Of a stretch of DNA of 64,000 nt, positions 1-44,588 are shown piece after piece (positions within the stretch are counted from its first letter, which is position 1; each line of letters begins with the position of its first letter). This stretch comes from a virus. The stretch is taken from the IMG/VR virus record IMGVR_UViG_3300017754_001832; one strand, 5' to 3'. The position numbers and the translations under genes are program-made. The notes under the pieces are model-generated. The model searched no databases. It was not told where the DNA came from and worked only from the letters and a program-made list of their open reading frames with translations.

Positions 1-114
1 ACCCCCGGCACGCCACGCCTGAAGACGGGGCCCAGGGCGACCGGGCTGCCGGGCCGCCGGCCGCCCCCACGTCTGCACCCCTGCCCCACAACTCAGACGC
101 ACATAGCTTGTTAG

Positions 115-800
115 TTGAGTGATACCCTGCACCCCACCCACCCCCACCCCCTGCACCCCCACCCCCTGCACCCACCCCACCCACCCCCTGTAGGGGATAG
201 CCTGCACCCACCCCCTGTAGGGGATAGCCTGCCCCACCCTGCCCCCCATCAACCCCCCCCCCCCCCCCCACCCCCTGCACCCCCACCCCCTGCACCCCGA
301 TCCGGACGGCGCCGCCCCTCCCGTTGATCTCCGCCAAGGGCCTGCCCCATGGCGCCGCGTTCGCGCCATTCTGGCGACGTTCGCAATTGCCTGGCTTTTG
401 TTAACTGCCCCTTCATGGGGCTATGCCTGCACCCACCCACTGCACCCACCCCACCCATGGCGGGCCTGCACCCTGACTGCAGTCAGCACGTCACCCCATG
501 GGGGCACGCTCTACAGGGGGCAGGGTGCAGGGGCAGGCCGCCGCTCTGGCGTGGCGTGGATCAACCCCGCCCCATGGCATGGCCCTTGCTCCCTTCTCCC
601 TGTCTGCACCCACTGCCTGACTCGTGGTTCCCCACCACACTAGAGATAGGCAGGGACAAGCAGTCACCCCCGCAAGGCCCGCCCCTCACTAGGGCGGGCC
701 TTGTTCGTTGTGGCCTGCCCCTGCCCCACGTGGCCCGCTCTGGCGCGGCCTGCCCCTGCACCCCCGCCACGGGGCAGGCCCGATGCACGCTTGCCCTAAC
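115..800. repeat. C-rich repeat region: at least 12 copies of CTGCACCC(N), two copies of CACCCCCTGTAGGGGATAGCCTGC (181-240) and a 17-nt poly-C tract (253-269)
   Basis: Read directly in the sequence. The long ORFs here are low-complexity proline/glycine artefacts. Confidence 0.8.
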
Positions 801-898
801 GCCGCGTTTCGCCGGGCTCGCCACTTTACCCGGCGGGCCTGGCTTTTCGTTAAGTGTAGAAAAGTGGCCGCAACTCAAAAGTTTCTTGTCTTGTTTAC

Positions 899-925
899 TT
901 GATCTTAAGGGGGGCTCGCGTAGTC
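899..925 (+). promoter_or_regulatory. Candidate early promoter: TTGATCT, 13-nt spacer, GCGTAGTC (matches the alphaproteobacterial sigma-70 pattern TTGACgS-N10-14-GCtANAWC)
   Basis: AT-richer island just upstream of the first plus-strand gene (ATG at 953). Confidence 0.3.
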
Positions 926-952
926 TCTTCTTATCAGCAACGGAGTCGCCCG

Positions 953-1114
953 ATGAAAACCGCCCCCACCTTCGGAAAGAAAAAAGCCCCCGCCCCCGTC
1001 GCCACGGCTCGCCAGATTGCCGAGTCCGTCGCCCGTGAGTGGGTCGGGCACAAGGGCCCGCTTGATGCGGCCACGCTGCGCACCGTTGCGCGTCTGGCGT
1101 CGGAGTCGCTCTAA
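953..1114 (+). CDS. hypothetical small protein (53 aa)
   Basis: ATG start lies in frame within the ORF 899..1114 and follows the candidate promoter. Confidence 0.4.
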   Translation: MKTAPTFGKKKAPAPVATARQIAESVAREWVGHKGPLDAATLRTVARLASESL

Positions 1115-1140
1115 TGCTCACGCGCCGCGAAGTCTTCGTT

Positions 1141-1248
1141 ATGCACCTTCAAATAGCTCTGGAAATGTCGCCGGTTATCGTGCTGGCGATTGTCCCGATG
1201 ATCCTAATGGCGTCGGGCCTCTGCTACCTCATGAACGCGGGAGTCTGA
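1141..1248 (+). CDS. small hydrophobic peptide (35 aa, 1 TM)
   Basis: MHLQIALEMSPVIVLAIVPMILMASGLCYLMNAGV. Ends in GGGAGTCTGAtATG, which overlaps the next start. Confidence 0.4.
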   Translation: MHLQIALEMSPVIVLAIVPMILMASGLCYLMNAGV

Positions 1249-1249
1249 T

Positions 1250-1378
1250 ATGGCGCCGCGTACCGTCATCGGGACTCTTTGGCTTCTCGCGTTGCTCGCC
1301 ATCGGCGGAGTCGTTCTCGCCATCGGTTACGGCTTCGTGGGTCTTTTCAATCTCTGCAACAAACAAACGGGAGTCTGA
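1250..1378 (+). CDS. small hydrophobic peptide (42 aa, 1 TM); tandem paralog of the previous peptide
   Basis: MAPRTVIGTLWLLALLAIGGVVLAIGYGFVGLFNLCNKQTGV. The same ACGGGAGTCTGATATG junction is repeated. Confidence 0.4.
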   Translation: MAPRTVIGTLWLLALLAIGGVVLAIGYGFVGLFNLCNKQTGV

Positions 1379-1379
1379 T

Positions 1380-1562
1380 ATGCGCTGGAATGATTGCTTC
1401 GAGTCGGATGAAGTCACCACGGCCAAACGCAAGGCCCGCGAAGAGGTGGCGGCCATATTCGCCGACCTTGAGTCCGACATGCTCGAAACGTTGAACGAGA
1501 TTCGCGGCGCCCTTGGAAAGCATGCGCTGCAATCGCTCGCCGACATCCGCGACGCGGCCTAG
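1380..1562 (+). CDS. hypothetical protein (60 aa)
   Basis: ATG follows the repeated GGGAGTCTGATATG junction. The track ORF 1017..1562 is a composite and this is its C-terminal part. Confidence 0.45.
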   Translation: MRWNDCFESDEVTTAKRKAREEVAAIFADLESDMLETLNEIRGALGKHALQSLADIRDAA

Positions 1563-1565
1563 CCC

Positions 1566-1907
1566 ATGTCATCCGTTACCTTGTGGAGCAAAAACGGAGT
1601 CGCCGCTCGCTGGAATAAGGGCGCCGCTCACACTGTAGAAACGGCCACTAGCTCCCGCGCATATCCGAACGAAGAGGCCGCGATAAGAGCGGCCAAACGC
1701 AAGGCGGCCAAGGCCGCGAAACAGGAAAGGACTCCGCCCATGTTCAAGCTCGAATATCGCGACCTCAACGCGGCCAACGTCAACTGGCGTTCATGGTCTA
1801 GCATGACATGGGACTCGCGTGAGGCCGCCGAACGTTTCAAGAAACAGGCGGAGATTGCATCGGCGCGCGACTCCCTTGCTCACGTCTACCGAGTCGTGCC
1901 CGCTTAA
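1566..1907 (+). CDS. hypothetical protein (113 aa)
   Basis: ORF with a non-repetitive, protein-like composition. Confidence 0.5.
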   Translation: MSSVTLWSKNGVAARWNKGAAHTVETATSSRAYPNEEAAIRAAKRKAAKAAKQERTPPMFKLEYRDLNAANVNWRSWSSMTWDSREAAERFKKQAEIASARDSLAHVYRVVPA

Positions 1908-1952
1908 TCGCCCCCACATCGCCCCACATTCGCAAGTCAAAGGATTCCCAAC

Positions 1953-3200
1953 ATGTCTAACCGCCCTTTCCCGCTCATGCTCGAAGCCTTCCCCGCGTTC
2001 GATCAATCCACGCTCCCGCCTATCCCGTTGCAGTGGGTTGACATGTCATGGCGCGGCGCCCGCTTCTCTGACTCGTGCCCGCAATTCGGCGCCACGCCAG
2101 AGGCCCTAGCGGGAACGGGAGTCGTGGTTGTCATCAATTGGGAAGACCGTTGCGGATGCGGACAAGACTATGTCGCAGTGCTGTATGATTGCGCTGGCGA
2201 GTGCGTCGAAGAGTGGGGCGGGGATGATTGGACCGAATGCCTTCACGCGGTCTCACGGCTTCGCAGGAAATGGGCGCCACTGCTTGCCGCGAACATTCGC
2301 GAAGCGGAGGAGGCCGAACGCAAGGCCGCCGCGCAACGTGAGGCAATCGCCAGAGCGGAGAAGGCCGCCGCAACGCCGCGCGCTCTTGTGGAGTTTCCCG
2401 ACTATCCCGCCGACTCGCTCCCGCCCCTGCCTACTGACACGCTCTGGCATGACGAGTCGTGGCATAATGACATGTGCCCCTGCTATCACTCCGCCGACGG
2501 ATTCGGCGTGTGGATTGACTGGCCCGAGTCGAAGGATCGGGAGTTGATCGGCTCTAAGCGTTTCTGTGTTTTCGACTATGAAGAAAACGCGCGCGGCATG
2601 AGCAAGGCCCGCGACTCGTTTGAGTGTGACACATGGGAGGAGGTTCTAGCCTTCATCAACGCCGCGCGCGAAAGTCTCGGCGCCGACATCGCCAAGGGAT
2701 TCGGCGATGACATACAAGAGGCCGCCGCGTGGATTGCAGCGATGCACAAGGCGGGCAAGGCGTTCCATTGGGAAGACTCGCCCTATGACATAATCGAAAC
2801 AGTGAGCGGAAAACGCACGTTCACGGATGCGGAGTCTATCATCGTGAACGCATGCCGACTCCGTCTCTATGACTTCACGTGGCCCGCCGACTCGTGCCCG
2901 TGTGGCGTGTCGCTGGCGCTCATGTCAAAGGAAACGATAGACGGCATGTGCGCCGAATATACGAAGCTACTCGAACGCTTCGAGTTGCCTAGCATGTCGG
3001 CGGACGAATTATATTTTGAGATCGGCGCCGTTATTGAGGGACTCGAGTCTGCCTTCATCACGCCAGAGCGCGCGGCCAAGGGCGGACTAGAAGAGGCGAT
3101 GAAGCACGTCCGCAGTTTTTCCGTTGATTGGGAAGACCGAGTCGACTCGTTTCAAACCGTGAAAGACGCATTCCCCGCGCTTCGTTCGCTGATCTACTGA
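1953..3200 (+). CDS. hypothetical early protein (415 aa), rich in Asp-Ser and Glu-Ser dipeptides
   Basis: Long ORF in which GACTCG/GAGTCG sequences are frequent. Confidence 0.6.
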   Translation: MSNRPFPLMLEAFPAFDQSTLPPIPLQWVDMSWRGARFSDSCPQFGATPEALAGTGVVVVINWEDRCGCGQDYVAVLYDCAGECVEEWGGDDWTECLHAVSRLRRKWAPLLAANIREAEEAERKAAAQREAIARAEKAAATPRALVEFPDYPADSLPPLPTDTLWHDESWHNDMCPCYHSADGFGVWIDWPESKDRELIGSKRFCVFDYEENARGMSKARDSFECDTWEEVLAFINAARESLGADIAKGFGDDIQEAAAWIAAMHKAGKAFHWEDSPYDIIETVSGKRTFTDAESIIVNACRLRLYDFTWPADSCPCGVSLALMSKETIDGMCAEYTKLLERFELPSMSADELYFEIGAVIEGLESAFITPERAAKGGLEEAMKHVRSFSVDWEDRVDSFQTVKDAFPALRSLIY

Positions 3201-3238
3201 GACCCTAGACTGCAGTCATCAACACAAGGAATCCGAAC

Positions 3239-3700
3239 ATGACTCACACTCCCGCCGCGCCAGAGATTGTCGCCGCGCGTCGACTCGTTCGCGACGCATG
3301 CCACGAACTAGGCGCCCTTCCGAATCACGTCTCGCACTGGAATCCGATCCGACTCGCCATGGCCGCCGACAACGTGCGAGCGGGCCTCACAACGCTAGGC
3401 CACAAGCTGGCGCCGAACGAAGAGGCCGCCTATTGGCGCCAGTGCGCAGAGCATGCGGAGGAACGCGCGGCGCTTCTCTCCCTCTTCACGGCTCGCCTAT
3501 TGGCGGAGACTCATGATTGGGCGTGGAGCCTTTGCGGCGAACGTGAAGGACTCGACTCGTTGCGCGCGGATTGCCTCACGGCTCTACAGGCTCACGCCGA
3601 ATCAGGCGGCGCCACAACGGGCGATTTTCTGGCGTTGCTGGAGTCGCTCAAGTCTGAGTCCCTGCCCCACTTGAAACAGGCGGCCAATGCGAGCCGCTAA
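3239..3700 (+). CDS. hypothetical protein (153 aa)
   Basis: ORF. Confidence 0.5.
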   Translation: MTHTPAAPEIVAARRLVRDACHELGALPNHVSHWNPIRLAMAADNVRAGLTTLGHKLAPNEEAAYWRQCAEHAEERAALLSLFTARLLAETHDWAWSLCGEREGLDSLRADCLTALQAHAESGGATTGDFLALLESLKSESLPHLKQAANASR

Positions 3701-3788
3701 ACTGATAATCCCCGCCGCTCTGTTTCTCGTTTGCGTCGCAGTGCAATGCACTGCGGCGCCTTCCCTGTTTCAATAGAAGGAGTCGCAC

Positions 3789-4019
3789 GTGAAGAATCGT
3801 TACGCTTATACGTTCGATGACGCGGGCCTAAACACAATCGGCGCCGCGTTGCATGTCTACATGACGCGGCCACACTTCGCGGAATTTCCAGACGAAGCCA
3901 AGCAACGCGCGCGGCGGATATACGCCAACGTCTCAGACGTTCGGCGGCCTTCGTTCCTTATCCCTCAACCCGACTCATGCGGATTCAATCTCGCATCCGT
4001 CGCCAGCTTCTCAGAATAG
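3789..4019 (+). CDS. hypothetical protein (76 aa, GTG start)
   Basis: Preceded by the conserved AGGAGTCGCACGTG translation-initiation cassette. Confidence 0.45.
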   Translation: MKNRYAYTFDDAGLNTIGAALHVYMTRPHFAEFPDEAKQRARRIYANVSDVRRPSFLIPQPDSCGFNLASVASFSE

Positions 4020-4028
4020 GAGTCGCAC

Positions 4029-4424
4029 GTGCTTTCAATTGTTGCCCCTAAGAAGGTCCGAGTCTCGAAGGAAGGAGTCGCCGCATTCAATGCGCAGTGG
4101 CCCTGTAGCGAGTTGGACTCAGGCCGCGCTTATTGGTTCGAGTTTGACTCGGATGCAAACCTAATCGACTCAGACGTGCCCGAACATTCCGACGGCGCCG
4201 CCGCGCTCGCCATGTCGCAGGATTGCGAGCGTTGGCTATTCAACGAAGAGTGGCCCGATTGGGCGCCGGAAGACGCGCCGACTCCGATTGCTGAAACTGC
4301 GGCGGAGGAAGGTGCAAGGCATGCGCTCGAAGCTCTGGCCTATCTCGACTCCGACATCACGCCAGAGCAACGCGCGGCGCTCGCATCGCTCAAACAATGG
4401 GCCGAGTCGATCATCCGCGAATAG
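4029..4424 (+). CDS. hypothetical acidic protein (131 aa, GTG start)
   Basis: Preceded by the same AGGAGTCGCACGTG cassette. Rich in Asp-Ser dipeptides. Confidence 0.45.
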   Translation: MLSIVAPKKVRVSKEGVAAFNAQWPCSELDSGRAYWFEFDSDANLIDSDVPEHSDGAAALAMSQDCERWLFNEEWPDWAPEDAPTPIAETAAEEGARHALEALAYLDSDITPEQRAALASLKQWAESIIRE

Positions 4425-4429
4425 TCGAA

Positions 4430-4468
4430 ACGTCAAAACCTGGAAATTGCGAAAGAAGGAATCAACGC
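4430..4468 (+). promoter_or_regulatory. Repeated intergenic element, copy 1 of 3 (AACGTCAAAACCTGGAAATTGCGAAAGAAGGAATC)
   Basis: Near-identical copies at 5103..5140 and 6028..6064, each immediately 5' of a gene start. Contains the RBS GAAGGAA. Confidence 0.6.
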
Positions 4469-5101
4469 ATGACTCGTTATATCAAACTCTCCGCCGAAAC
4501 ATACGCGCGACTCAACTATGCACTAGCAGACGCCAGCGACGCGCGCCGCTCTGAGATCAACGCGACGCGAGACTCTGAGATCATCACAAGCAACGAGTCG
4601 GCGATTGCCGCTAACAACGTGGCCGCCGATCAACTGACTCAAGCGTGGAACGCGGGCAATCGACTCCCGACTCAATGCGCCACGCTCGAAGCGGAAAAAG
4701 AAACGCGCGAACGCATGCCCGGCGAACGCACGAATCGCGACCGCTCTAACCGCGCGGCGGATGCACTGCGCAAATACAACGGGAGCGACTCACGTGAAGA
4801 CGGAGTCGAAGGCGACTCGGAAATGCTCGCCGACATGCTAGGCGATTTGCGCCATTGGGCGCGGCTTCGCGGCGTTGACTTCGACGCATGCGCGGCGCGC
4901 GGCTTCGCAATGTCAGAGATGGAAAGAGTCGAAGACTTCGACGAAGAAGAAGAAGAAGACGAAGAGAATCCGCAACGCCGCGCGCTTCGCGAGATGATCC
5001 GACTCGCGTCTTCTCTTCGCGCCGCGAAGAACGAACGCGACCGCAAGCAATGGCGCGAATCGCTTTTCGCTTTCACTGAGACCGCGCGCGACACGCTCTA
5101 A
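4469..5101 (+). CDS. hypothetical protein (210 aa) with a poly-Glu tract
   Basis: In-frame ATG after the 35-nt repeated upstream element. The track ORF starts earlier, at 4397. Confidence 0.5.
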   Translation: MTRYIKLSAETYARLNYALADASDARRSEINATRDSEIITSNESAIAANNVAADQLTQAWNAGNRLPTQCATLEAEKETRERMPGERTNRDRSNRAADALRKYNGSDSREDGVEGDSEMLADMLGDLRHWARLRGVDFDACAARGFAMSEMERVEDFDEEEEEDEENPQRRALREMIRLASSLRAAKNERDRKQWRESLFAFTETARDTL

Positions 5102-5102
5102 A

Positions 5103-5140
5103 CGCCAAAACCTGGAAATTGCGAAAGAAGGAATCGAGCA
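5103..5140 (+). promoter_or_regulatory. Repeated intergenic element, copy 2
   Basis: See copy 1. Confidence 0.6.
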
Positions 5141-6016
5141 ATGAAACTGCACCCCGAAGAACGCAAGGCCCGCGATGAAGTGGCCGTGTATGGATTGCGC
5201 CAGCGACTCAAACGCCACAAAGAAAAGACGGAAGGCGCAATTGAAAAGCGCCGCGCCGCGCTCGCGCCCTATGTGAAGGACTCCGCATTGTTGGAGTCGC
5301 GCGTCGCCGATCCGTCGGACTCGTATCTCGCCAGCTTGTGGCCGCTAGACTGGCGCGAATCCGCGCGGCTCGAAGCGCGGCGCCGGTTTGCGTTCGGCGA
5401 GTCCACGCCGACTCCAATGCCCGCCGACGGGCAACGCTTCGTTGAGAATATCGACTCGGCGTTCCGTAGCTGGCGCTATGTTCGCGACATCACACGCGGC
5501 CACTATATGCGCAGCGTCGATTCCGATTGGTATTGCGACTCGGACGGCCATAGGGTGGGGCGGGCAATCGTGGCCCGTCTCTCACATGGCCGATTCATCG
5601 GCGGAGTCAAATTTGAAGAACGCTCTTACAAGGACTCGGGCGCCTTGTTTGACTTTCGCGACATCACAAGCGGAGAAGAGACAGAGGCCGCAATCTCCGC
5701 CGCGCGCTTGTGCGAGCGTGTCGCCGAAAAAGAGCGCGACTATAACGAAGCGTGGCAAGCTGGCGCGGAATGCGTCGCGCTTCGCGAAGAGGTGGAGTCG
5801 ACGCGCGGCGAATTGCTGGAGTCGTTGGCTGAAATGCGCGCGGCTCGCAAGGCTCTGAAACAATCCGGAGTCGAGCAACTGCCTAGCGTCTGCAACGCCA
5901 TGCGCTCGCACGTTCGCGCGGGCCTTCGTGGAATTGCCCGCGCCAGAAAACGAGTCGAGGAACTACGGGAACGCTTCGAGCGTGAACCGGGATTCGCCGA
6001 CTCGTTCAATAGCTAG
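5141..6016 (+). CDS. hypothetical protein (291 aa)
   Basis: ORF preceded by the second copy of the 35-nt element. Ends in a TAG stop. Confidence 0.55.
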   Translation: MKLHPEERKARDEVAVYGLRQRLKRHKEKTEGAIEKRRAALAPYVKDSALLESRVADPSDSYLASLWPLDWRESARLEARRRFAFGESTPTPMPADGQRFVENIDSAFRSWRYVRDITRGHYMRSVDSDWYCDSDGHRVGRAIVARLSHGRFIGGVKFEERSYKDSGALFDFRDITSGEETEAAISAARLCERVAEKERDYNEAWQAGAECVALREEVESTRGELLESLAEMRAARKALKQSGVEQLPSVCNAMRSHVRAGLRGIARARKRVEELRERFEREPGFADSFNS

Positions 6017-6027
6017 AACTACACAAC

Positions 6028-6064
6028 GTCAAAAACCTGGAAACGAAGAGAAGAGAGAATCACA
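6028..6064 (+). promoter_or_regulatory. Repeated intergenic element, copy 3 (more diverged)
   Basis: See copy 1. Confidence 0.5.
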
Positions 6065-7657
6065 ATGGGTTACGGTAACGGGACTCGCACTAGCCATTTT
6101 GCGTCATCGGCGAATCGCTATCGCGACGGCGCCAAGGTCGCGCAATCTTTCCACAACGCGCAATGCGGCCACGTCTGGCGCCAAGGCGTTCAAGACTTCG
6201 GACGATCAAGCAACGGGAATCTATTCTTTCACCACGCGCGACTCTATTCCTATGGGCGTCACTTCGTCGTCGCTATCCTGACTCCGGATGGCCGCGCGCT
6301 TGTGAACGCCGACTCGTCAAGCGTCACCACGTCAGGCCATCAAACCGACGCGCGACGCGCGCTAGGGTGGGGCGGTTACGCCAGCGTGCCCGACCTTACC
6401 GCGCTAGTCGAAAAGACTCCTTTTGGCCTATGGTGCGACTATCACACGCGCGCGGCCGGCGGCGACAAGATCGACTCGGGCAATCTGGAGTCGCTCAAAC
6501 GCGGCGCCCGCGTGGCCGTGGTGGAATATGTCACGCGCGAAGCGTACCGACTCGAAGACGAAGGAGTCGGCGTTGCGTTGCTGGCGCTTGTCGGAGTCGA
6601 AGACGCGCCGACTCGTTTCGCTCGCATGCTCGCCACGTCGAAGAAGAAACAGGAGTCGATAAAGGCAGACGCAGAGAAGAAGCGCCGCGACTATTACCTA
6701 GGCGTTGCGTCTCGCGTCGCGAACATGAGCGAGACAGAGCGCGCGGAATATCTGGCGAGTCGACTCCCGCGTTCCGTTGTGACCTCAGAGCATGAGATAG
6801 CGAAAGAACGAGTCAAGCTCCACCGGGCGCGCGGTTACGCCAAGGCCGCGAAGCGGACAAAGCAGGCCGCCGCAGTCTCGGCAATGATTCGCGACATCGA
6901 CTCCGCGCTCAAGAAAAAGCGCGCGGGCCTTGATCGCTGGCAAGCCCGGCGCGGACTCGCAAACGCAATTGGCGCATATCGTGAAGGCTTGGCCCGCATT
7001 GCGCGCGGCGGAGTCTATCCGGATGGCCCATGGGACTCCGCATGGCGCGCGGAGTCGTTCGTCGAAGCCGTGGCCTATGTCGCGCGCAACGTCAAAACGC
7101 TGCGGCCTGAGAATCGCGAGACCCTGGAAAACGCGGCGCGACTCCTCACGCAAGGACTCGCCGCGTGGAAAGAACGGGAACGCGAAGAGGCAGACGAACG
7201 CGAACGAGTCCGCGTGGCGGAACGTTTCGCCAAGCAGGCAGACGCTCGCCGGGCTTGGCTTGCTGGCGAGCGTGTGGAGTCCTACTTGCTCCACGGACTC
7301 ACGGATGAAACAGGCGGCGCCCTGCTTCGAGCAATCGGAGTCGAGCGTGACGAGTCGGGCGCCATTATCGCGGGAACGCTCGAAACGTCACAACGTGCGA
7401 GCGTGCCCCTGCCTCACGCTATCCGCGCTTTCCGCTTCCTGAAACGCTGCAAGGAGTCCGGTCGCGCGTGGCATAAGAACGGCCACGCAATCCGAGTCGG
7501 GCATTTCCAGATTGACTCCATTGAGCCGTCCGGAAATTTCCGCGCGGGATGCCACCGCATCAATTGGGCGGAGGTGGAGCGTCTGGCGCTGGCGCTTGGC
7601 GTGTTTGACGTGGCGAGCGATGACGGCGCCCTAGAGCCGTCGCACGTTGCGGCCTGA
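6065..7657 (+). CDS. hypothetical protein (530 aa)
   Basis: Long ORF preceded by the third copy of the upstream element. Confidence 0.6.
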   Translation: MGYGNGTRTSHFASSANRYRDGAKVAQSFHNAQCGHVWRQGVQDFGRSSNGNLFFHHARLYSYGRHFVVAILTPDGRALVNADSSSVTTSGHQTDARRALGWGGYASVPDLTALVEKTPFGLWCDYHTRAAGGDKIDSGNLESLKRGARVAVVEYVTREAYRLEDEGVGVALLALVGVEDAPTRFARMLATSKKKQESIKADAEKKRRDYYLGVASRVANMSETERAEYLASRLPRSVVTSEHEIAKERVKLHRARGYAKAAKRTKQAAAVSAMIRDIDSALKKKRAGLDRWQARRGLANAIGAYREGLARIARGGVYPDGPWDSAWRAESFVEAVAYVARNVKTLRPENRETLENAARLLTQGLAAWKEREREEADERERVRVAERFAKQADARRAWLAGERVESYLLHGLTDETGGALLRAIGVERDESGAIIAGTLETSQRASVPLPHAIRAFRFLKRCKESGRAWHKNGHAIRVGHFQIDSIEPSGNFRAGCHRINWAEVERLALALGVFDVASDDGALEPSHVAA

Positions 7658-7667
7658 TAGGGGCAGG

Positions 7668-7823
7668 GTGCGAGTCTTGTGGCCGCTCTATGTGGCCGCC
7701 TTGCTCGCATCCCTCACGCTTGCCGCGTTGGCGCTGGCGTTGTGGGGCTGTCTCAAGTGGTGGCGTGAATTGATCGGCGCCGCGATTCTCTATTGGCTGA
7801 TATTGGGGCGGAGTAGACACTAG
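7668..7823 (+). CDS. small membrane protein (51 aa), a possible holin
   Basis: GTG start after the RBS AGGGGCAGG. Hydrophobic (MRVLWPLYVAALLASLTLAALALALWGCLKWW...). Lies just before the bidirectional terminator and convergent with the endolysin. Confidence 0.3.
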   Translation: MRVLWPLYVAALLASLTLAALALALWGCLKWWRELIGAAILYWLILGRSRH

Positions 7824-7840
7824 CCCCCGAAACGAACGAA

Positions 7841-7873
7841 GGCCCGCCGGATCATCCGGCGGGCCTTTTTCAT
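7841..7873. terminator. Rho-independent terminator (GGCCCGCCGG-ATCAT-CCGGCGGGCC followed by TTTTT), plausibly bidirectional
   Basis: Perfect 10-bp GC stem and a T-run, between convergent genes. Confidence 0.85.
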
Positions 7874-7930
7874 TGCACCCCAAAAACCTGGCCCGCGTCT
7901 GCCCGGCGAAAAGAACGCGCGCGGCGGGCC

Positions 7931-8326
7931 TCAGACGGGGGCAGGATAGGCTTTCCAGCTTAGTTGCCAGTGCGGGCCATCCTGAAACGTGCGCCAATCT
8001 CCGCCCCACTCAATCGCGACTCCTTCGAGCCGCGCGGCTTCCTTCATCCCCTCCGCAATTTTCCGGATCACGGGCCAGCTATAATCAGGGGCGCCCGCAA
8101 TCCATCCGCAAACGTCTATTGCGTGGCCCGTGAGATGGCGGGAGCGGAGAGTCTTGCTTGCTCCCGCCGCGACTAGCTGGCGCTGGCGTGCGAGCGTCCT
8201 AAGCCCCTCTGTAACCCTGACATCTACGGCGCCCGTTTGCGCCAGATACCGAGTCAGGACTCGGACTAGGTCGGGATGCACCCCCGCCAGCTTTTCACGG
8301 GATGACTTGCCTAATTTGAACGCCAT
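7931..8326 (-). CDS. endolysin, peptidase M15 (VanY-like D-Ala-D-Ala carboxypeptidase / L-Ala-D-Glu peptidase) family (131 aa)
   Basis: Protein MAFKLGKSS...RSRHLTGHAIDV...WGGDW carries the SxHxxGxAxD zinc-peptidase motif. Start set at the internal ATG, not the 239-aa ORF start. Confidence 0.75.
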   Translation of the reverse strand: MAFKLGKSSREKLAGVHPDLVRVLTRYLAQTGAVDVRVTEGLRTLARQRQLVAAGASKTLRSRHLTGHAIDVCGWIAGAPDYSWPVIRKIAEGMKEAARLEGVAIEWGGDWRTFQDGPHWQLSWKAYPAPV

Positions 8327-8459
8327 GGCGTGGACTCCGGATACGGGCGCCGCCGGGTAAGGTGACGCTAGGTTATGCTCCGGACGAGCATATGGGGCGC
8401 CCGGCGCGTGCGCGCCTGGGTGCGCGCGTGCGCGTACACTACGGGAATGACTCGTGTAG

Positions 8460-8650
8460 TGCAACGCCAGGCCGGCCGGGCTCGGGAATTTTGGGACTTT
8501 GGATTCATTCTGGGAATTTTGGGGCGCCAGCGTCAATTTTTTACAGTTCCGAATCGAGCCGGGGAATTTTGGGGCTTTCGAGTCAAGTTTTGAAAATATC
8601 AAGTCAGCCCCCGCTTGACTTGCAGATCGGGGGTCGGCATAAACGGCCAA
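8460..8650. promoter_or_regulatory. Regulatory region: three direct repeats of GGGAATTTTGGGG (8474, 8510, 8562), an inverted repeat CAAGTCA-N9-TGACTTG (8596-8618), and a sigma-70-like promoter TTGACT-N17-CATAAA (8613-8641)
   Basis: AT-richer intergenic region between the divergent endolysin and plus-strand genes. Confidence 0.5.
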
Positions 8651-8655
8651 TGGGA

Positions 8656-8850
8656 AAGCCAGTAACGCACTACGCCTACGTCCGGACGGGGATGTTCGGT
8701 TCGGACACCACGATCACGGGCTCTGCCTGCGGTCGGGAGACGGGCCTCGAAGTCGGCATCAACTCCGACGACGATCTCGACAAGGTCACGTGCAAGCTGT
8801 GCCTCAAACATCCTCGGTATCTCAAAGCGAAAGCAGCAGCAGCCAAATGA
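8656..8850 (+). CDS. small Cys-containing protein (64 aa), possibly a regulator
   Basis: ATG after the promoter-like element. The track ORF 8362..8850 extends over the regulatory region and is probably too long. Confidence 0.4.
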   Translation, partial: KPVTHYAYVRTGMFGSDTTITGSACGRETGLEVGINSDDDLDKVTCKLCLKHPRYLKAKAAAAK

Positions 8851-9275: not shown

Positions 9276-9446
9276 AAACGAATCTCTGAAAACGAATCTG
9301 ATTTTATGAATCTGATTCTACGAAGCGACGAAACGAAAAGCGACTGAGGGGAAGCGACTTTGGGTTATCTGTTTGACCGAGCGATCCGGATCAGCCACGA
9401 CACGGGCAAGCAGTGCCCGGTCGCCGAGGGACGTGCCGTCTACGTG

Positions 9447-10148
9447 ATGGAGAACGCCGCTCGGGAAGCCGCCGCCCACATCTTCGCCGGCATGGCGTCC
9501 GAACAGTTGATCCGCTTCCTGTTCCTCCCGTTCCCCGAACTCTGCATGGAGTGGCGCCACGAGGACGAGCAGGTCTGCGTGCTGATCGAAGAGTCGAAGG
9601 CCACCAACTCGAAGACGGGCGAGGAGTTCGACTCGGTCACGGTCGCGATCCTCGTCGAGAACGAGGCAGGCCGTCAGTGGCAGGCGTCGATGTATTACGT
9701 CCGCGCGGTGAACAGCAACGGCAACATCCCGTGGGATGAATCGCCCGCAGCGAAAGCGATCCCCGAGAACAAGCGGATGTCGAGCGACGCGCACAAGAAC
9801 CTGATGGCAGAGATCATCGTCCAGGTCGCGCTCCTCAACGCGCCAAACCTCCGCACCGCCGAGGCGCGCGACATGAGCAAGCTCAACAAGGCTCGCGCGA
9901 AGAAGGGACAGCCCTTGCTGTGCGGCCACACCGTGATCCGCCCGGCCGCAGAGACCCGTGAGTGGCTGCGCGCAAACGCCGACGTGGACCGCAAGCCCGC
10001 CATGCAGCATTGGGTCAAAGGCCACCTCCACACCTACTGGACAGGCCCCAAGACCGAACAGCAGAAGCCCGTCATCAAGCTCCTGGCTCCGCACAAGCGC
10101 GGCAACCCGGAGCGGGGTGAGAAACCCCAAAGGTACATCGTCACATGA
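9447..10148 (+). CDS. hypothetical protein (about 233 aa)
   Basis: ORF 9360..10148, with the start set at the first in-frame ATG. The antisense ORF 9318..10130 is judged spurious. Confidence 0.5.
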   Translation: MENAAREAAAHIFAGMASEQLIRFLFLPFPELCMEWRHEDEQVCVLIEESKATNSKTGEEFDSVTVAILVENEAGRQWQASMYYVRAVNSNGNIPWDESPAAKAIPENKRMSSDAHKNLMAEIIVQVALLNAPNLRTAEARDMSKLNKARAKKGQPLLCGHTVIRPAAETREWLRANADVDRKPAMQHWVKGHLHTYWTGPKTEQQKPVIKLLAPHKRGNPERGEKPQRYIVT

Positions 10149-18919: not shown

Positions 18920-20794
18920 ATGGCCGTCAAGCCCAAGTCACCGCAGATCACCAAAGCCCAACTCCAGAAGTGGGTGAACCTCGTAAACCGGCTTGACGGC
19001 AACGTCTCACGCGCGGCGGAAGAAGCAGGCATCTCCGCCCGCCAACTCAAGCGCCACCTCGACACCTGCAAGAAACGCGGCGTCGTTCCGCCGAAGCCCT
19101 TCAACCCCCAGAACGCCATCCGATCAACCGACATCGCCGACGACGAACTGCACGATGTCTGGAACGTCTACGAGCGATACGGATACGACGCACAAGCGAC
19201 CGCCGAAGCTCTCGGCATCCACGAGTCCTCCCTCCGCAACCGCATCAAGAAAGCGCAGCACAAGTTCGGCTACGTGAAGAAGTCCCTCGGGGTGACTCAC
19301 GCGCAGGCCGCCGCGCCGCTGCCGCTCCCCGACGCCGGCAAGATCAACTACTTCATGCTGACGACGGCGCAGAACAACACCAAGGTCCACGACGCAACGT
19401 GGGCTTCGGGCATCAACCTCGCGAAGCACTACGACGCCGAGATCAAGGTCTCGACCTTCACCTACATCGGCAACGAGGAAGGCTCGCAGAAGCGCGGGCA
19501 CGAGAAGTCGGGCGAGGCCATGGGCCGCAAGGTCGAGGACCGCTGGTATGATCCGCGCGTCGTCCCGTACATCTCCGACGAGTTCCAACAGCTTGCGCCG
19601 GGTCTCGTGTGGTGCGGCCACTCCAACACACTGCCGACCGCGTCCGACCCGCTCCGTGGCACGCAGTCTCTCAATGGCCGTGCGTCTGGTGTCTGGCCCC
19701 ACACGCGGATCGAGATGCGCCCGGTCGCCACGGCTGCCGGTGAAGCCACCAAGTTCAACTTCACGACCGGCGCCGTCACGCTGCGCAACTACATCCAGAA
19801 GCGGGCCGGCATCGCGGCGGAGTTCTACCACTGCTTCGGCTTCCTGCTCGTCGCCGTCGACTCGAACGGCAATTGGTGGTGCCGCCAACTCAACGCCGAT
19901 AGCGAAGGCAACATCTACGACCTCGACCTGCTCGCGACTCCCGAAGGCGTGTTCGAGTGGATCGACGAGAAGAAGGGCGGCCTCGAAGGTCTGGTCTATG
20001 GCGACATCCACCGCTCGAAGATCGACGAGACGATCCGCGATGCGACGTGGGGCCCCGGCGGCCTCGTGGACTTCCTCAAGCCCAAGGTGCAGGTCTTCCA
20101 CGACCTCCTCAACTTCAACCCGTCGCACCACTCGCGCAAAGACCCGCACGAGATGTATAAGCAGCGCAAGCGCGCTGAAGACCTGGTGTACGGCGAGATC
20201 GAGGGCGACGGCTCGTTCCTCGATTGGACGCACCGCCCGTGGTCGCGCGAAGTCGTGGTCGACTCCAACCACCACCGTCACCTCGACCGCTTCCTGAAGG
20301 AAGTCGATTGGCGTGACGACCTCAACAATGCGCGCGTCATCCTCGACATGAACCTCGCGTGGCTCGACGCCATCGACAAGGGCGAGGAAGAGGACTTCCT
20401 TGCCTACGAGTGGCAGATCAGGAAGATGGGCTACGGCAAGCACGCCCACTTCATGAACCTCACCAGCGAGAAGCCCGAGAAGCTGAGCCTCGTGCTCTGC
20501 AAGGGCAACGGCGGGGGTATCGAGGTCGGCGCGCACCACGGGGATCGCGGGCCGAACGGCGCACGCGGCACGCCGCAGAACCTATCGAAGATGGGCCGCA
20601 AGAATGTCATCGGCGACAAGCACTCGCCGGGCATCTGGGGTGGCACCTACGTTGCAGGCATGACCGGCAAGCCGCGTCAGGGCTACAACATCGGGCCGGG
20701 CTCGTGGGCTGCCGCGCACGTGCCGATTTACCCGAACGGAAAGCGGCAAGTCCTGTTGTTCTGGAAAGGCATGCCGCACGAACCGCGCGGTTAG
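18920..20794 (+). CDS. large hypothetical protein (624 aa) with an N-terminal HTH-like segment and possible phosphoesterase-like motifs
   Basis: ATG at 18920 follows the upstream stop. The track ORF begins 79 aa earlier, overlapping the upstream gene. Contains VYGDIHRS and GAHHGDRG. Confidence 0.5.
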   Translation: MAVKPKSPQITKAQLQKWVNLVNRLDGNVSRAAEEAGISARQLKRHLDTCKKRGVVPPKPFNPQNAIRSTDIADDELHDVWNVYERYGYDAQATAEALGIHESSLRNRIKKAQHKFGYVKKSLGVTHAQAAAPLPLPDAGKINYFMLTTAQNNTKVHDATWASGINLAKHYDAEIKVSTFTYIGNEEGSQKRGHEKSGEAMGRKVEDRWYDPRVVPYISDEFQQLAPGLVWCGHSNTLPTASDPLRGTQSLNGRASGVWPHTRIEMRPVATAAGEATKFNFTTGAVTLRNYIQKRAGIAAEFYHCFGFLLVAVDSNGNWWCRQLNADSEGNIYDLDLLATPEGVFEWIDEKKGGLEGLVYGDIHRSKIDETIRDATWGPGGLVDFLKPKVQVFHDLLNFNPSHHSRKDPHEMYKQRKRAEDLVYGEIEGDGSFLDWTHRPWSREVVVDSNHHRHLDRFLKEVDWRDDLNNARVILDMNLAWLDAIDKGEEEDFLAYEWQIRKMGYGKHAHFMNLTSEKPEKLSLVLCKGNGGGIEVGAHHGDRGPNGARGTPQNLSKMGRKNVIGDKHSPGIWGGTYVAGMTGKPRQGYNIGPGSWAAAHVPIYPNGKRQVLLFWKGMPHEPRG

Positions 20795-20802
20795 AGGGAA
20801 GC

Positions 20803-21288
20803 ATGAACCATATTGCAATGATCGTCGCCCATCAGTTCGTCACGAACAAAGAGCGCGTTGAATACGTCCGGAAGATCACCGCCGACTTCGAGGAGCGCAG
20901 GCCGCGCGGATACGCGGCGACCGGGTGCCTGCTTGAACCCGTCTACGGCGCCGCCATCGTGGCGTTCAACGACATCCCGACTGCAGTCGAGAGCGACTAC
21001 TCGTCGACTCCTCGCGGCGTTGAGCGGGCGCCGAAGTTCGCCGCGCTCGGGCACGCCGAGGTCAACGCCATCGCGTTCGCGGCCTACGCCGGCACTGCGA
21101 CGGCGGGCGCCACGATGTCGCTGGCCTGGTTCCCGTGCATCAACTGCGCGGCAGCCATCGTGAAGGCAGGCATCAAGCGTGTCGTCGCGACCGAGCCGAA
21201 CTACGACTACAAGCCCGAGCAATACGACTTCCGTGGCGCTCGAAAGATTCTGGAAGACGCAGGCGTCATCGTCTGCTTCGAGAAGTAG
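20803..21288 (+). CDS. dCMP/cytidine deaminase family protein (161 aa)
   Basis: HAEVNAI (H-x-E zinc ligands) and PCINCAAAI (PCxxC) motifs. Confidence 0.75.
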   Translation: MNHIAMIVAHQFVTNKERVEYVRKITADFEERRPRGYAATGCLLEPVYGAAIVAFNDIPTAVESDYSSTPRGVERAPKFAALGHAEVNAIAFAAYAGTATAGATMSLAWFPCINCAAAIVKAGIKRVVATEPNYDYKPEQYDFRGARKILEDAGVIVCFEK

Positions 21289-21297
21289 GAGACTCCA

Positions 21298-21597
21298 ATG
21301 GCCTCGGGCCAATTCGTTTTGAACGGAACTGAGAAGCAAGCGGAGGTGTTCGATGTCATCCTCGGCGAGCGCGACTACCAAGACCAGCAGCAGGGCAACG
21401 CCAAACGTCACGAAGGGCAACCGCCGATGACGCCCGGTGAATACCTCCTGTGCATGGAGAAGTGCCTACAGGACGCCCGCACCGAATGGTACAAGCCCGA
21501 TGGCGGCAAGTCCTGCCTCGACTTCGTTCGCAAGGTCACGGCTCTTGGCGTAGGCTGCATGGAGCTTCACGGCGCTCCTCGTCGGGAGGGCTTCTGA
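21298..21597 (+). CDS. hypothetical protein (99 aa)
   Basis: ORF. Confidence 0.45.
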   Translation: MASGQFVLNGTEKQAEVFDVILGERDYQDQQQGNAKRHEGQPPMTPGEYLLCMEKCLQDARTEWYKPDGGKSCLDFVRKVTALGVGCMELHGAPRREGF

Positions 21598-21878
21598 TGT
21601 CGGCCACCAAACCGAACGCAGGCAATCGAGGCATCAACGGCGATGCCAAAGAGAAGGTGAAGCGGTTCGTCTCCCGCATCCGCAAGCTCAAGGCCGAGCA
21701 GGCGGAGATCGGCGAAGAGGTGAAGAACATCTACGCCGAGTGCAAGTCCAACGGATACGACGCAGCGGCCATCCGCGAGTTGATCTCGGAGATGGAGAAG
21801 CGCGAGAAGAACCCTGAAAAGTGGGAAGCGAAAGAGGACATGAAAGATGTCCTCCGCGTCGCGCTGGGAATGGTCTGA
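21597..21878 (+). CDS. GapR-like (DUF2312/UPF0335) DNA-binding protein (93 aa)
   Basis: VSRIRKLKAEQAEIGEEVKNIYAECKSNGYDAAAIRELISEMEK...ALGM closely resembles Caulobacter GapR, a family restricted to alphaproteobacteria and their phages. Confidence 0.7.
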   Translation: MSATKPNAGNRGINGDAKEKVKRFVSRIRKLKAEQAEIGEEVKNIYAECKSNGYDAAAIRELISEMEKREKNPEKWEAKEDMKDVLRVALGMV

Positions 21879-23343: not shown

Positions 23344-23626
23344 GAAGAAGAAGCCCACGCTCAACGAGACCGAGCGCCTGGCTCGCGAGGACGCCGCGCT
23401 CGCCGTCATCAAGGCCAACCGCAAGCCTCTGCCGTTCGGCGAAGAGGTGATGCAGGGCTTCGAGGGCATGAGCCGCCATCGCATCAGCCAGTTCATGGCG
23501 CGTGAACGGATGCGCGCCGAGGCCGAGGAGAAGCGGGGCCGCACCGACCGCGCCAACGATGCCCGCTGGAATATGGCTCGCGCCAAGCAGGCGCTCAAGT
23601 TCATCGACGCACAGGCCGCAGCATGA
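23336..23626 (+). CDS. hypothetical basic protein (96 aa)
   Basis: ORF. Confidence 0.4.
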   Translation: MRKKKKPTLNETERLAREDAALAVIKANRKPLPFGEEVMQGFEGMSRHRISQFMARERMRAEAEEKRGRTDRANDARWNMARAKQALKFIDAQAAA

Positions 23627-24291
23627 AGATCGCAGCACTCCCGCCGGGTCCGTTCGGCCTTATCTACGCCGACCCGCCATGGCGCGTCGAGACCTACAGC
23701 GAGAAGGGCCGCAACCGGCTGCCCGACGGCGATGTGGGCCACTACCAGACGATGACGCTCGACGACATGAAGTCGATGCCGGTCGCCGATGTCGCGGCGA
23801 AGGACTGCATGCTGGTGATGTGGGTGATCGACACGCACATTCCGCAGGCGCTCGAACTCGGCGCGGCGTGGGGCTTCACCTACAAGACCACGGCGTTCTA
23901 TTGGGCCAAGCTCCGCAAGCTCGGCGCCGACGGGAAACCCGGCCGCGAAGCGAAGACTCCCGAGAAGGAGTTCCCCGCCGGCATGGGATACTGGACCCGG
24001 GCGAACCCGGAGCAGGCGTTCCTGTTCACCCGAGGCAAGCCGCAGCGGATCGACAAGGGCGTGCCCAAGCTGATCCCCTTCGACGACTACCCACAGGTGG
24101 TCGCGGCCAACCGGCGCGAGCACAGCCGCAAGCCCGACGAGGTCTACGACCGCGTCAACCGGCTGATCGGCGACGTGCCCAAGCTCGAACTGTTCGCCCG
24201 CACCTCCGCACCCGGCTGGACCGCATGGGGCAACGAGGTCGGGAAGTTCGATACGAAACCCCGCAGATCGAGGACCGATTTGCTGGGATAA
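23623..24291 (+). CDS. N6-adenine DNA methyltransferase, MT-A70 family (222 aa)
   Basis: LIYADPPW catalytic motif, with downstream FYWAKL and VMWV segments typical of MT-A70-like methyltransferases. Confidence 0.8.
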   Translation: MKIAALPPGPFGLIYADPPWRVETYSEKGRNRLPDGDVGHYQTMTLDDMKSMPVADVAAKDCMLVMWVIDTHIPQALELGAAWGFTYKTTAFYWAKLRKLGADGKPGREAKTPEKEFPAGMGYWTRANPEQAFLFTRGKPQRIDKGVPKLIPFDDYPQVVAANRREHSRKPDEVYDRVNRLIGDVPKLELFARTSAPGWTAWGNEVGKFDTKPRRSRTDLLG

Positions 24292-43748: not shown

Positions 43749-44588
43749 TTAGGCGTAGGCGGGTCGGCCAAGGGCGTAGATCGCCGCGTAGCTGGTGGGC
43801 TTCAGGATTTCGACCTGGAACGGGATGACGTTCCACTCGTCCGACTTCAGCGCGTAGTCTCCGTTCGGGGAGACCTTGATCCACGGGAAGAAGTAGTCGA
43901 TGTCGTCGCCGACCGGGTTGAAGGCGATGAACTGCATCGCGCCTTCGACCGGCTCCGAACCCGAGAGGATGCGGTTGTAGGTCGAGGGACGGATCGTGTA
44001 CGTGACCTGAAGGTCCGTGCCGTCCGCGATGCCACCGCCAACGATGACGTACAGGCGGCCCGTCTCCGGATCGACCGTGTAGTCCGTGCCGTAGACGAAC
44101 TCCGTGTTGCCCGCCGAGTTCGAGTCGTTCTCGACAACCGTGAAGGCGCCGCCCGAGTTCGAGTCGGTGTCGCCACCGGCCACGAGGCCCTTCGCGCCGG
44201 CAGGGCGCGTGGTCGAGATGCCAAGCTGGTAGTAGAGGCCCTGCTCGACATCGTTGACTTCTTCGGCGGTGATCGTCGCACCAGCTTCCGTCACGACTTC
44301 TTCCTCGCCGAAGAAGAAGATGGCGACGTTCTTGATGTCGATGTTGTCGGTCGTGAAGGTGCCCGAGCGGTTGACCTGGAGAGCAATGCTCTCGTCCTTC
44401 TCGCGGATGCCGTGATCCGAGTTGAAGTGGTCGAGAACCTCTTGCTCGATGGTGAGCGAGAACTCCGGTGTGTTCCCGATATACCGGAAACCCTTTGGGG
44501 TTTGGGTGCCCGTGACAAAGCGGGCGAAACTGATTTCGCCACGACCCAGCGTGTAGTTGTTAGTGACAATGCCTTCGGTGGCGGCCAT
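43749..44588 (-). CDS. major tail protein, gpV-like (about 279 aa) with two DSNS motifs
   Basis: Start MAATEGIV after the RBS GGAGAT. Located between gpU-like and gpG-like genes. Confidence 0.6.
   Translation of the reverse strand: MAATEGIVTNNYTLGRGEISFARFVTGTQTPKGFRYIGNTPEFSLTIEQEVLDHFNSDHGIREKDESIALQVNRSGTFTTDNIDIKNVAIFFFGEEEVVTEAGATITAEEVNDVEQGLYYQLGISTTRPAGAKGLVAGGDTDSNSGGAFTVVENDSNSAGNTEFVYGTDYTVDPETGRLYVIVGGGIADGTDLQVTYTIRPSTYNRILSGSEPVEGAMQFIAFNPVGDDIDYFFPWIKVSPNGDYALKSDEWNVIPFQVEILKPTSYAAIYALGRPAYA

Follow-up and report, generated by a model that had tools for sequence, protein, structure and literature searches.

Selection at the DNA level has multiplied one 5-bp site across a domain beside a probable phage genome end

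The window analysed here, a 64,000-nucleotide stretch of viral DNA (IMG/VR virus record IMGVR_UViG_3300017754_001832), contains at positions 943–8584 a sharply bounded domain, beside a probable genome end, in which selection at the DNA level has multiplied the words GAGTC and GACTC about six-fold. We write the two words together as GASTC (S, G or C) and their A/T-centred counterparts GAATC and GATTC as GAWTC, and refer to the domain as the GASTC island. Related phages of Alphaproteobacteria have kept the trait but not most of the genes within the domain. The original prediction, made from the letters of the window, was that GAGTC/GACTC is over-represented within a leftward 6.6-kb block of early genes. 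The over-representation is real and stronger than first noted; the extent and the direction of the block turned out otherwise, as described below.

First, exact counting finds 248 GASTC sites in the whole 64-kb window (63% GC), 112 of them in the 7,642 bp of the island (14.7 per kb) and 136 in the other 56.4 kb (2.4 per kb). The rest of the window predicts 18.4 sites for the island (Poisson P = 3e-49), and the density, which is 10–20 per kb from 1 to 8 kb and 7 per kb from 8 to 9 kb, stays at 0–6 per kb elsewhere. Between 1100 and 7700, Markov models derived from the block itself expect 14.5 ± 4.1 (order 0), 16.1 (order 1) and 27.3 (order 2) sites, compared with a count of 103. GACTC/GAGTC is by far the most enriched 5-mer of the block relative to the rest of the window (106 versus 18 expected, z ~20). 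The hand counts behind the prediction proved exact (14 sites in 2401–3300 and 1 in 20001–21000), and k-mer counts and null models together bear out an enrichment of ~6–7-fold. GAWTC shows no excess in 1100–7700 (24 sites versus 9–21 expected; 19 observed versus 21.6 under the codon shuffle introduced below), so that the enriched word is GASTC and not GANTC as a whole.

Second, the excess survives a null model that preserves both proteins and codon usage, gene by gene. This synonymous-codon shuffle had been named in advance as the test able to overturn the claim; run within nine genes, it expects 36.1 ± 4.2 GASTC sites, with a maximum of 48 over 500 shuffles, whereas 95 are observed, an enrichment of 2.6-fold. 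As had been noted, the sites occupy all three codon phases, and neither the shuffle nor the encoding of dipeptides allows the excess to be a by-product of Asp-Ser and Glu-Ser usage. Gly-Val is written GGA-GTC in 59% of cases inside the island and 4% outside, and Arg-Val is written CGA-GTC in 53% and 14%, respectively. Encodings that contain a site are likewise preferred inside the island for Arg-Leu (58% versus 11% outside), Gly-Leu (38% versus 2%), Glu-Ser (83% versus 47%) and Asp-Ser (97% versus 77%). The share of GGA among glycine codons rises from 9% outside to 28% inside, and rare codons are used specifically where they complete a GASTC site. Glu-Ser and Asp-Ser (ES and DS) dipeptides are themselves ~3.5 times commoner in the block proteins; taken with the dipeptide encodings, this excess indicates that both codon choice and protein sequence have been bent toward GASTC.

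Third, the excess is a property of a stretch of DNA and not of one operon or strand. Rather than being confined to the 6.6-kb early block, it runs on through an endolysin gene on the − strand and intergenic DNA to ~8580, and site density falls to background where the next + strand operon starts (~8650). Nor is the block leftward: its protein-like open reading frames (ORFs) with PHROG matches all lie on the + strand and are read rightward. Genes contain 105 of the 112 island sites, and every island gene carries them at 4–23 per kb.

Fourth, comparison with relatives, which had been proposed as a check, shows that GASTC islands recur in related phages. Judged by its DNA polymerase and by a 530-residue protein encoded in the block (the 530-aa protein), the phage belongs with Casjensviridae-like siphophages that infect Alphaproteobacteria, a group including Ruegeria phage DSS3-P1 and its kin, S-ESS1, and Erythrobacter phages R16L and R22L; the hosts of cultured relatives are Ruegeria, Erythrobacter and Sphingomonas. 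At least 13 related phages with little gene homology have an island near a contig or record end, including the cultured phages DSS3-P1, R16L, Carli and S-ESS1, and every closer relative examined has a 4–8-kb block with GASTC excess. Observed and first-order expected counts are 62/8.5 in R16L and 36/3.7 in S-ESS1, and, among the compared sequences that we number with the prefix L, 73/10.8 in L007, 44/5.8 in L008, 44/6.3 in L010, 53/4.1 in L011, 17/5.6 in L012 and 32/9.7 in L013. The island of DSS3-P1 occupies its first 6 kb (roughly 45 sites, 6–10 per kb versus ~1.6) and that of Sphingomonas phage Carli lies at 52–56 kb (3–10 per kb versus ~1); the IMG/VR contigs L020, L021, L024 and L036 supply further islands. 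In an unbiased scan, GACTC/GAGTC was the only 5- or 6-mer consistently over-represented in nine blocks (mean z 15.3, minimum 4.6). Pooled over 12 islands, the ratio of observed to expected sites is 6.4 for GASTC and 1.16 for GAWTC.

Apart from the recurring 530-aa protein and a 291-residue one (the 291-aa protein), block genes are not conserved; DSS3-P1 has an island but no block protein detectably shared with the window by tblastn. A megablast search of the block against phage records and an IMG/VR scan with a single protein each gave no match. In the window, L007, L008, L010 and S-ESS1 the block genes read from the contig end inward; in R16L, DSS3-P1 and Carli they read outward to the record end. 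What the islands have in common is their position beside a contig or record end. Individual sites are also conserved above expectation. Between the window and L007, which share ~72% nucleotide identity, 36 of 69 sites stand at the same aligned position (52%, versus 30% for all 5-mers, p = 1e-4), and each genome has ~30 private sites. The sites are thus maintained yet turning over, as expected if their number and spread outweigh their exact position.

The contig ends themselves point to a physical terminus. Contigs or records of the window phage and its relatives terminate 0.4–1.4 kb from the block; among those from other samples, L007, L008, L009, L010, L013, L017 and L020 have their contig end 0.6–1.4 kb upstream of it. 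A Logan assembly of the same phage begins within a few bases of window position 1, and the start of L008 retains an Illumina adapter remnant. On this indirect evidence from contig ends and the Logan assembly, we regard the window as probably starting at the physical left end of a linear genome, which would put the island ~0.9 kb from that end; the window itself covers the 68.5-kb source contig without its last 4.4 kb. The terminal non-coding region, compared over 1–900 of the window and the first 600 bp of L007, L008, L010, L017 and L020, is strongly strand-asymmetric, with 43–49% C on the block-gene strand in the window, L006, L007, L008 and L020, and in the window it includes a poly-C run of about 17 at roughly 259–275. 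Its repeats are lineage-specific, of the CTGCACCC(C)ACCCC type in the window and L007 and CCTGACCCC in L010. Each of the six ends checked (L007, L008, L010, L013, L017 and L020) has C-rich repeats of its own. This region may be a packaging or terminus element.

These results largely refute the view that the sites are a functionless by-product of composition, whether through amino acids, codon usage, horizontal origin or mutation bias, and we consider it very improbable. Such a view could draw on the lower third-codon-position GC of the block compared with the rest of the genome, on the frequent ES and DS dipeptides and on other skewed words such as CGCGCG, ATTGC and CTAG; a depletion of GAGT without a following C, 3-fold in the islands, is a possible hint of a directional process. 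It does not account for the codon shuffle (36 sites versus 95 observed), for rare codons placed specifically to complete sites, for sites more conserved in position than other 5-mers, or for GASTC being the only consistently enriched word across blocks with little or no protein homology and differing GC. The other skewed words were followed in their own right. Relative to the rest of the window, 1000–8200 is enriched in CGCGCG (45 versus 6.6), CCGCGCG (32 versus 3.6), ATTGC (38 versus 6.6) and CTAG (22 versus 2.2), and CGCGC is kept in position between the window and L007 at 50%. We rejected all four as a second conserved word, none being consistent across relatives. In 12 pooled islands, GAGT without a following C occurs at 1.17 per kb inside and 3.51 per kb outside, and AGTC without a preceding G is unchanged (3.21 inside versus 3.89 outside). 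A one-mismatch neighbour test of a biased-repair origin gave no interpretable result beyond this GAGT/AGTC asymmetry, and that origin was set aside.

The sites have a simple anatomy. Position counts over ±8 bp at 104 sites (1001–7700) reveal only S at −1 and G at +5, a preference identical at sites outside the island; an extended motif around GASTC was accordingly rejected. Over 1001–8000 the + strand carries roughly 47 sites in one orientation and 57 in the other, an about equal use, and the two are interleaved at random; a strand-polar word of the Chi or KOPS kind was therefore also discarded. Spacing is slightly more even than random, with a coefficient of variation of 0.83 in the window and 0.81–0.94 across nine islands. 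Pairs at most 10 bp apart are depleted (~10 observed versus ~45 expected, nine islands pooled), and site spacings have no 10–11-bp periodicity that would indicate helical phasing. Periodic or paired arrangements were rejected, since short spacings are depleted and not in excess. The two kinds of local arrangement pointed out in the original prediction were located exactly: palindromic back-to-back doublets at 3040/3045 and 3139/3144, and ribosome-binding cassettes with GGGAGTCTGATATG at 1239 and 1369 and AGGAGTCGCACGTG at 3778 and 4018. The ribosome-binding sites of the four small ORFs at 953–1562 include GGAGTC/GGGAGTC. Core-only, apolar and spaced, the sites have the look of independent 5-bp duplex sites each needing its own footprint. 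From this we infer recognition by a protein for which the 5-bp core alone matters, in the manner of DNA methyltransferases and enzymes of the restriction type.

Relatives that lack islands bear on which class of protein this might be. Several other phages that encode a 530-aa homolog depart from the island pattern. Among them, phiCbK, Brevundimonas phage Leszy and Rhizobium phage RHEph01 lack an island and have little GANTC genome-wide. Five IMG/VR relatives that share the protein (L022, L023, L028, L029 and L039) contain 0–3 GASTC sites and few or no GAWTC sites in 12–21 kb at 61–69% GC, an avoidance of GANTC much stronger than elsewhere in the family. Three distant relatives that likewise encode a homolog (L017, L033 and L034) have a modest GAWTC excess of 2.2–3.4-fold, with GASTC depleted in the same stretch of L033 and L034; these GAWTC-rich blocks, in which GAWTC is not the top word, are only suggestive. 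The Xylella/Xanthomonas phage Bacata, a member of the Casjensviridae with a gammaproteobacterial host, has no island. GANTC is known to be under-represented in Alphaproteobacteria and some of their phages, and CcrM homologs may have narrower specificities, for example GAWTC (PMC8919816, PMC9516812). The presence of island-bearing, GAWTC-rich and GANTC-avoiding relatives, with none of these in the relative from a gammaproteobacterial host, indicates that the word belongs to a class that these hosts and phages clearly ‘see’. The proposed link to the GANTC class thus fits the family-wide pattern; a plain reader of any GANTC does not explain the island, because GAWTC is not enriched.

The end-proximal blocks of two of these island-free phages have a repeat of another kind. 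The homologous blocks of phiCbK (L003, 788–10263) and Leszy (L004, 28727–28971) contain 19 and 9 copies of GTTAAC, respectively, and no GASTC excess. In phiCbK all 19 copies are intergenic, and the gTAACC-N-TTAAC setting of several of them is reminiscent of CtrA boxes (TTAA-N7-TTAAC); TTAAC as a word goes unmentioned in the paper on the phiCbK genome.

The reading that we prefer, with somewhat less than even confidence, is that the island may be an array of 5-bp duplex sites, kept by selection and belonging to the CcrM/GANTC class, which would most likely be adenine-methylation sites marking the end-proximal domain. GASTC falls within GANTC, which is the target of CcrM, a methyltransferase widespread in Alphaproteobacteria, and of the GANTC methyltransferases often encoded by their phages; on that ground the sites are taken to be N6-adenine methylation sites. 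Virion DNA would then arrive with its end-proximal domain densely methylated, and the first replication would lower the methylation of the domain to the hemi-methylated state. A host or phage factor reading that state could set the parental copy apart, either in its early expression or in its protection. The preference for a G/C centre would imply that the writer or the reader discriminates the central base pair.

Several observations weigh against this methylation reading. Caulobacter CcrM methylates all four GANTC variants, and sites of the CcrM type should therefore be independent of their centre; GAWTC is at background in the window and near it in the pooled islands. The lack of a GAWTC excess means either that the writer or reader discriminates the central base pair or that the factor is no classical GANTC enzyme at all. 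GASTC sites lie mainly in coding sequence rather than in promoters. A methylation tag leaves unexplained why ~100 sites over 7.6 kb should be needed. The candidate writers are no more uniform. Both the GapR homolog and the MT-A70 methyltransferase attributed to the phage are present (21597–21878 and 23623–24291), and the latter has no similarity to the verified GANTC methyltransferase phiLM21_p027. MT-A70 relatives are widespread in phages of enterobacteria, where GATC specificity has been reported for them. A single methyltransferase family serving all island phages was rejected, since the window and S-ESS1 have MT-A70 enzymes and the methylase in the DSS3-P1 record is a CcrM-like N6_N4 enzyme, with CcrM as its top PDB hit (E 8e-27). 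In favour of the reading stand this likeness to CcrM, a report that DSS3-P1 encodes a methyltransferase ~45% identical to an enzyme verified as GANTC-specific (PMC7139368), and the frequency with which phages of Alphaproteobacteria encode GANTC methyltransferases unrelated to CcrM (PMC5537653). A further point against it concerns GcrA, the known reader of such methylation. In Caulobacter it prefers methylated YGAKTCK, with sites centred around −20 of promoters or in the stretch from +2 to +30 (PMC4647560). A GcrA-type reader had been suggested for the island, but 196 of 637 sites inside islands (31%) and 141 of 422 outside (33%) fit YGAKTCK (p = 0.38); with its preferred flanks not enriched and the sites not promoter-proximal, GcrA is unsupported. 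An approximate query, a weak test, turned up no GcrA-like ORF in the window.

The GapR-like protein itself appears to mark an alphaproteobacterial host lineage. It occurs in every island-bearing relative with enough sequence to find it, and genes of this kind were located in L001 (13685–13981), L014 (10678–10956), L002 (19157–19381), L041 (about 44274–44438) and L036 (1082–1336).

A broader reading, which we regard as possible but doubtful, is that the island constitutes a novel cis-acting domain of the phage genome, in which ~100 copies of one 5-bp site in end-proximal coding DNA would be read by a factor of the cell-cycle methylation system. Such a factor, from host or phage and acting through methylation or direct binding, might control the fate of the incoming DNA, a proposal that we offer just as tentatively.

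Rather less likely than the methylation reading is an array for a dedicated GASTC-specific binding protein of phage or host that would act independently of methylation and coat, protect, anchor or help to draw in the DNA. The anatomy suits it well: the sites are evenly spread, apolar and core-only, pairs at most 10 bp apart are depleted as if each site needed its own footprint, the centre is specifically G/C and not any base, and the island is end-proximal regardless of the direction of transcription. Yet no candidate protein was found; the only two widely conserved block proteins (530 and 291 aa) both occur in phages without an island too; a 5-bp site is short for such a protein; and the GANTC-avoiding relatives point instead to the methylation/restriction class.

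Two further explanations make the phage either a sink for host factors or a substrate for an enzyme. Under the first, which was among the roles suggested in the original prediction and seems to us improbable, replicating phage DNA would offer so many GANTC-type sites that host CcrM or GcrA is titrated away and the cell cycle of the host derailed. Phages of Alphaproteobacteria do target this module, phiCbK encoding a GcrA homolog and others GANTC methyltransferases (PMC3556154, PMC5537653), and there are many sites per genome. A sponge, however, does not require its sites to be packed into a single, sharply delimited domain near the end; for CcrM, GAWTC would do just as well, yet it is not enriched, and the flanks that GcrA prefers are not enriched either. 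Under the second, which we think more improbable still, the sites would be targets of a GAGTC-specific nicking or Type IIS enzyme or of a phage HNH enzyme, through which the end-proximal domain would be processed, recombined or shut off. GAGTC is the recognition sequence of enzymes of the PleI/MlyI/N.BstNBI type, the phage encodes HNH endonucleases, and specifically placed nicks have a precedent in other phages such as T5. With sites in equal orientations and doublets at 3040/3045 and 3139/3144, such an enzyme would make double-strand breaks throughout the early genes, and the HNH_3 proteins of the phage look homing-type. The suggested PleI/MlyI/N.BstNBI-like enzyme was not found among the part of the ORFs tested in Pfam, PHROG, NCBIfam and PDB-sequence searches; PDB-sequence searches of four further ORFs yielded nothing useful.

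The layout of the island and the other features discussed are given in Table 1. None of the block ORFs (953–7657) has a known function in profile and sequence searches. The hallmark 530-aa protein starts with a beta domain and continues through a long helical stretch to a C-terminal domain, whose matches to PUR/Whirly-like folds are weak. The hairpin downstream of it could end transcription from both directions. The endolysin, a late-function gene, stands alone on the − strand between two + strand operons, and L007 is arranged likewise. Farther inward, the L007 protein at 7983–8771 has a precomputed Pfam AcrVA2-like domain (PF26125); its window ortholog at 9360–10148 has no Pfam match at E 0.001.

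Table 1. Features of the window that bear on the GASTC island
Feature	Position	Strand	Details
Non-coding terminal region	1–900	+	46% C on + strand; short repeats; poly-C run
GASTC island	943–8584	both orientations ~equal	112 sites, 14.7 per kb; sharp edges
Four small ORFs	953–1114, 1114–1248, 1250–1378, 1380–1562	+	gene calls on identical Logan contig L006
ORF, 113 aa	1566–1907	+	5 sites
ORF, 415 aa	1953–3200	+	phrog_34896; 14 sites
ORF, 153 aa	3239–3700	+	8 sites
ORF, 76 aa	3789–4019	+	1 site
ORF, 131 aa	4029–4424	+	8 sites
ORF, 210 aa	4469–5101	+	phrog_3963; 12 sites
ORF, 291 aa	5141–6016	+	phrog_8188; widely conserved, including phiCbK; 15 sites
ORF, 530 aa	6065–7657	+	phrog_7247; block hallmark protein; 30 sites
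GC-rich hairpin	7839–7867		13-bp stem, terminator-like; between convergent operon and endolysin gene
Peptidase M15 endolysin	7931–8326	−	4 sites versus 0.86 expected by codon shuffle, P = 0.002
Intergenic region	8330–8650		last three island sites at 8333, 8449 and 8580
GapR-like DNA-binding protein	21597–21878	+	PF10073, E 2e-14
MT-A70 family DNA methyltransferase	23623–24291	+	DPPW motif; candidate writer; outside island

Methylation and restriction sites in phages are normally studied as sequences to be avoided; here one is strongly selected for, and in about a dozen genes this selection has been strong enough to reshape codon use and even dipeptide content. Phages in culture share the trait (Ruegeria phage DSS3-P1, Sphingomonas phage Carli and Erythrobacter phage R16L), and a GASTC island offers a simple sequence signature by which the ends of such phages, and the gene block beside them, can be located in metagenomes. 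If the sites were read through CcrM or GcrA, they would represent a new phage entry into the alphaproteobacterial cell cycle, beside phage GcrA homologs and GANTC methyltransferases. Another reader would mean a new DNA-binding specificity and a new function for end-proximal DNA. If the island is indeed a cis-acting domain, related lineages would have evolved opposite solutions to one host system: a GASTC island, a GAWTC-rich block or avoidance of GANTC.

In the open-access literature we came upon no account of a local GANTC or GASTC island in any phage genome, an absence that is not proof. Several known systems share some of its features. CcrM/GANTC methylation is the closest in sequence: all 112 sites match GANTC, as two of its four sequences, the hosts of cultured relatives are Alphaproteobacteria, and related phages carry adenine methyltransferases, one of them CcrM-like (PMC5537653, PMC7139368). 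The published pattern, however, is depletion of GANTC (PMC8919816, PMC9516812), whereas the island has a local six-fold excess of the G/C-centred forms only, and its methylation is putative. GcrA sites are similar in that GAGTC fits the core GAKTC, and differ in that the island sites are spread through coding DNA and the preferred flanks are not enriched (PMC4647560). Chi and KOPS are likewise short words over-represented through selection on DNA; they are strand-polar, unlike the island sites, whose orientations are about equal and randomly interleaved.

In position, the island recalls the T5 first-step-transfer region and the 10-kb terminal repeat of phiCbK, which are also end-proximal blocks of small genes without known function. 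Judged from contig and record ends, it lies, like the T5-type terminal pre-early region, at the probable physical end of a linear genome. The phiCbK repeat even contains homologs of two of the block proteins of the window; unlike the island, neither this repeat nor the corresponding block of Leszy is enriched in GASTC, and both contain intergenic GTTAAC repeats instead.

In organization, the nearest counterparts are clusters of the Dam site GATC that are read by their methylation state, at E. coli oriC with SeqA and at the pac site of phage P1. These too are local excesses of a short methyltransferase site whose methylation state separates old from new DNA, with methylation putative in our case. 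The oriC and P1 pac clusters span 0.1–0.3 kb of non-coding DNA with 7–11 sites; the island spans 7.6 kb of mostly coding DNA with ~110 sites, and has no helical phasing and no known reader. The nearest known kind is thus a cluster of methyltransferase sites read by methylation state, from which the island differs in scale, in coding location and in lacking a known reader, and there is a real chance that it is a kind more distinct than such clusters.

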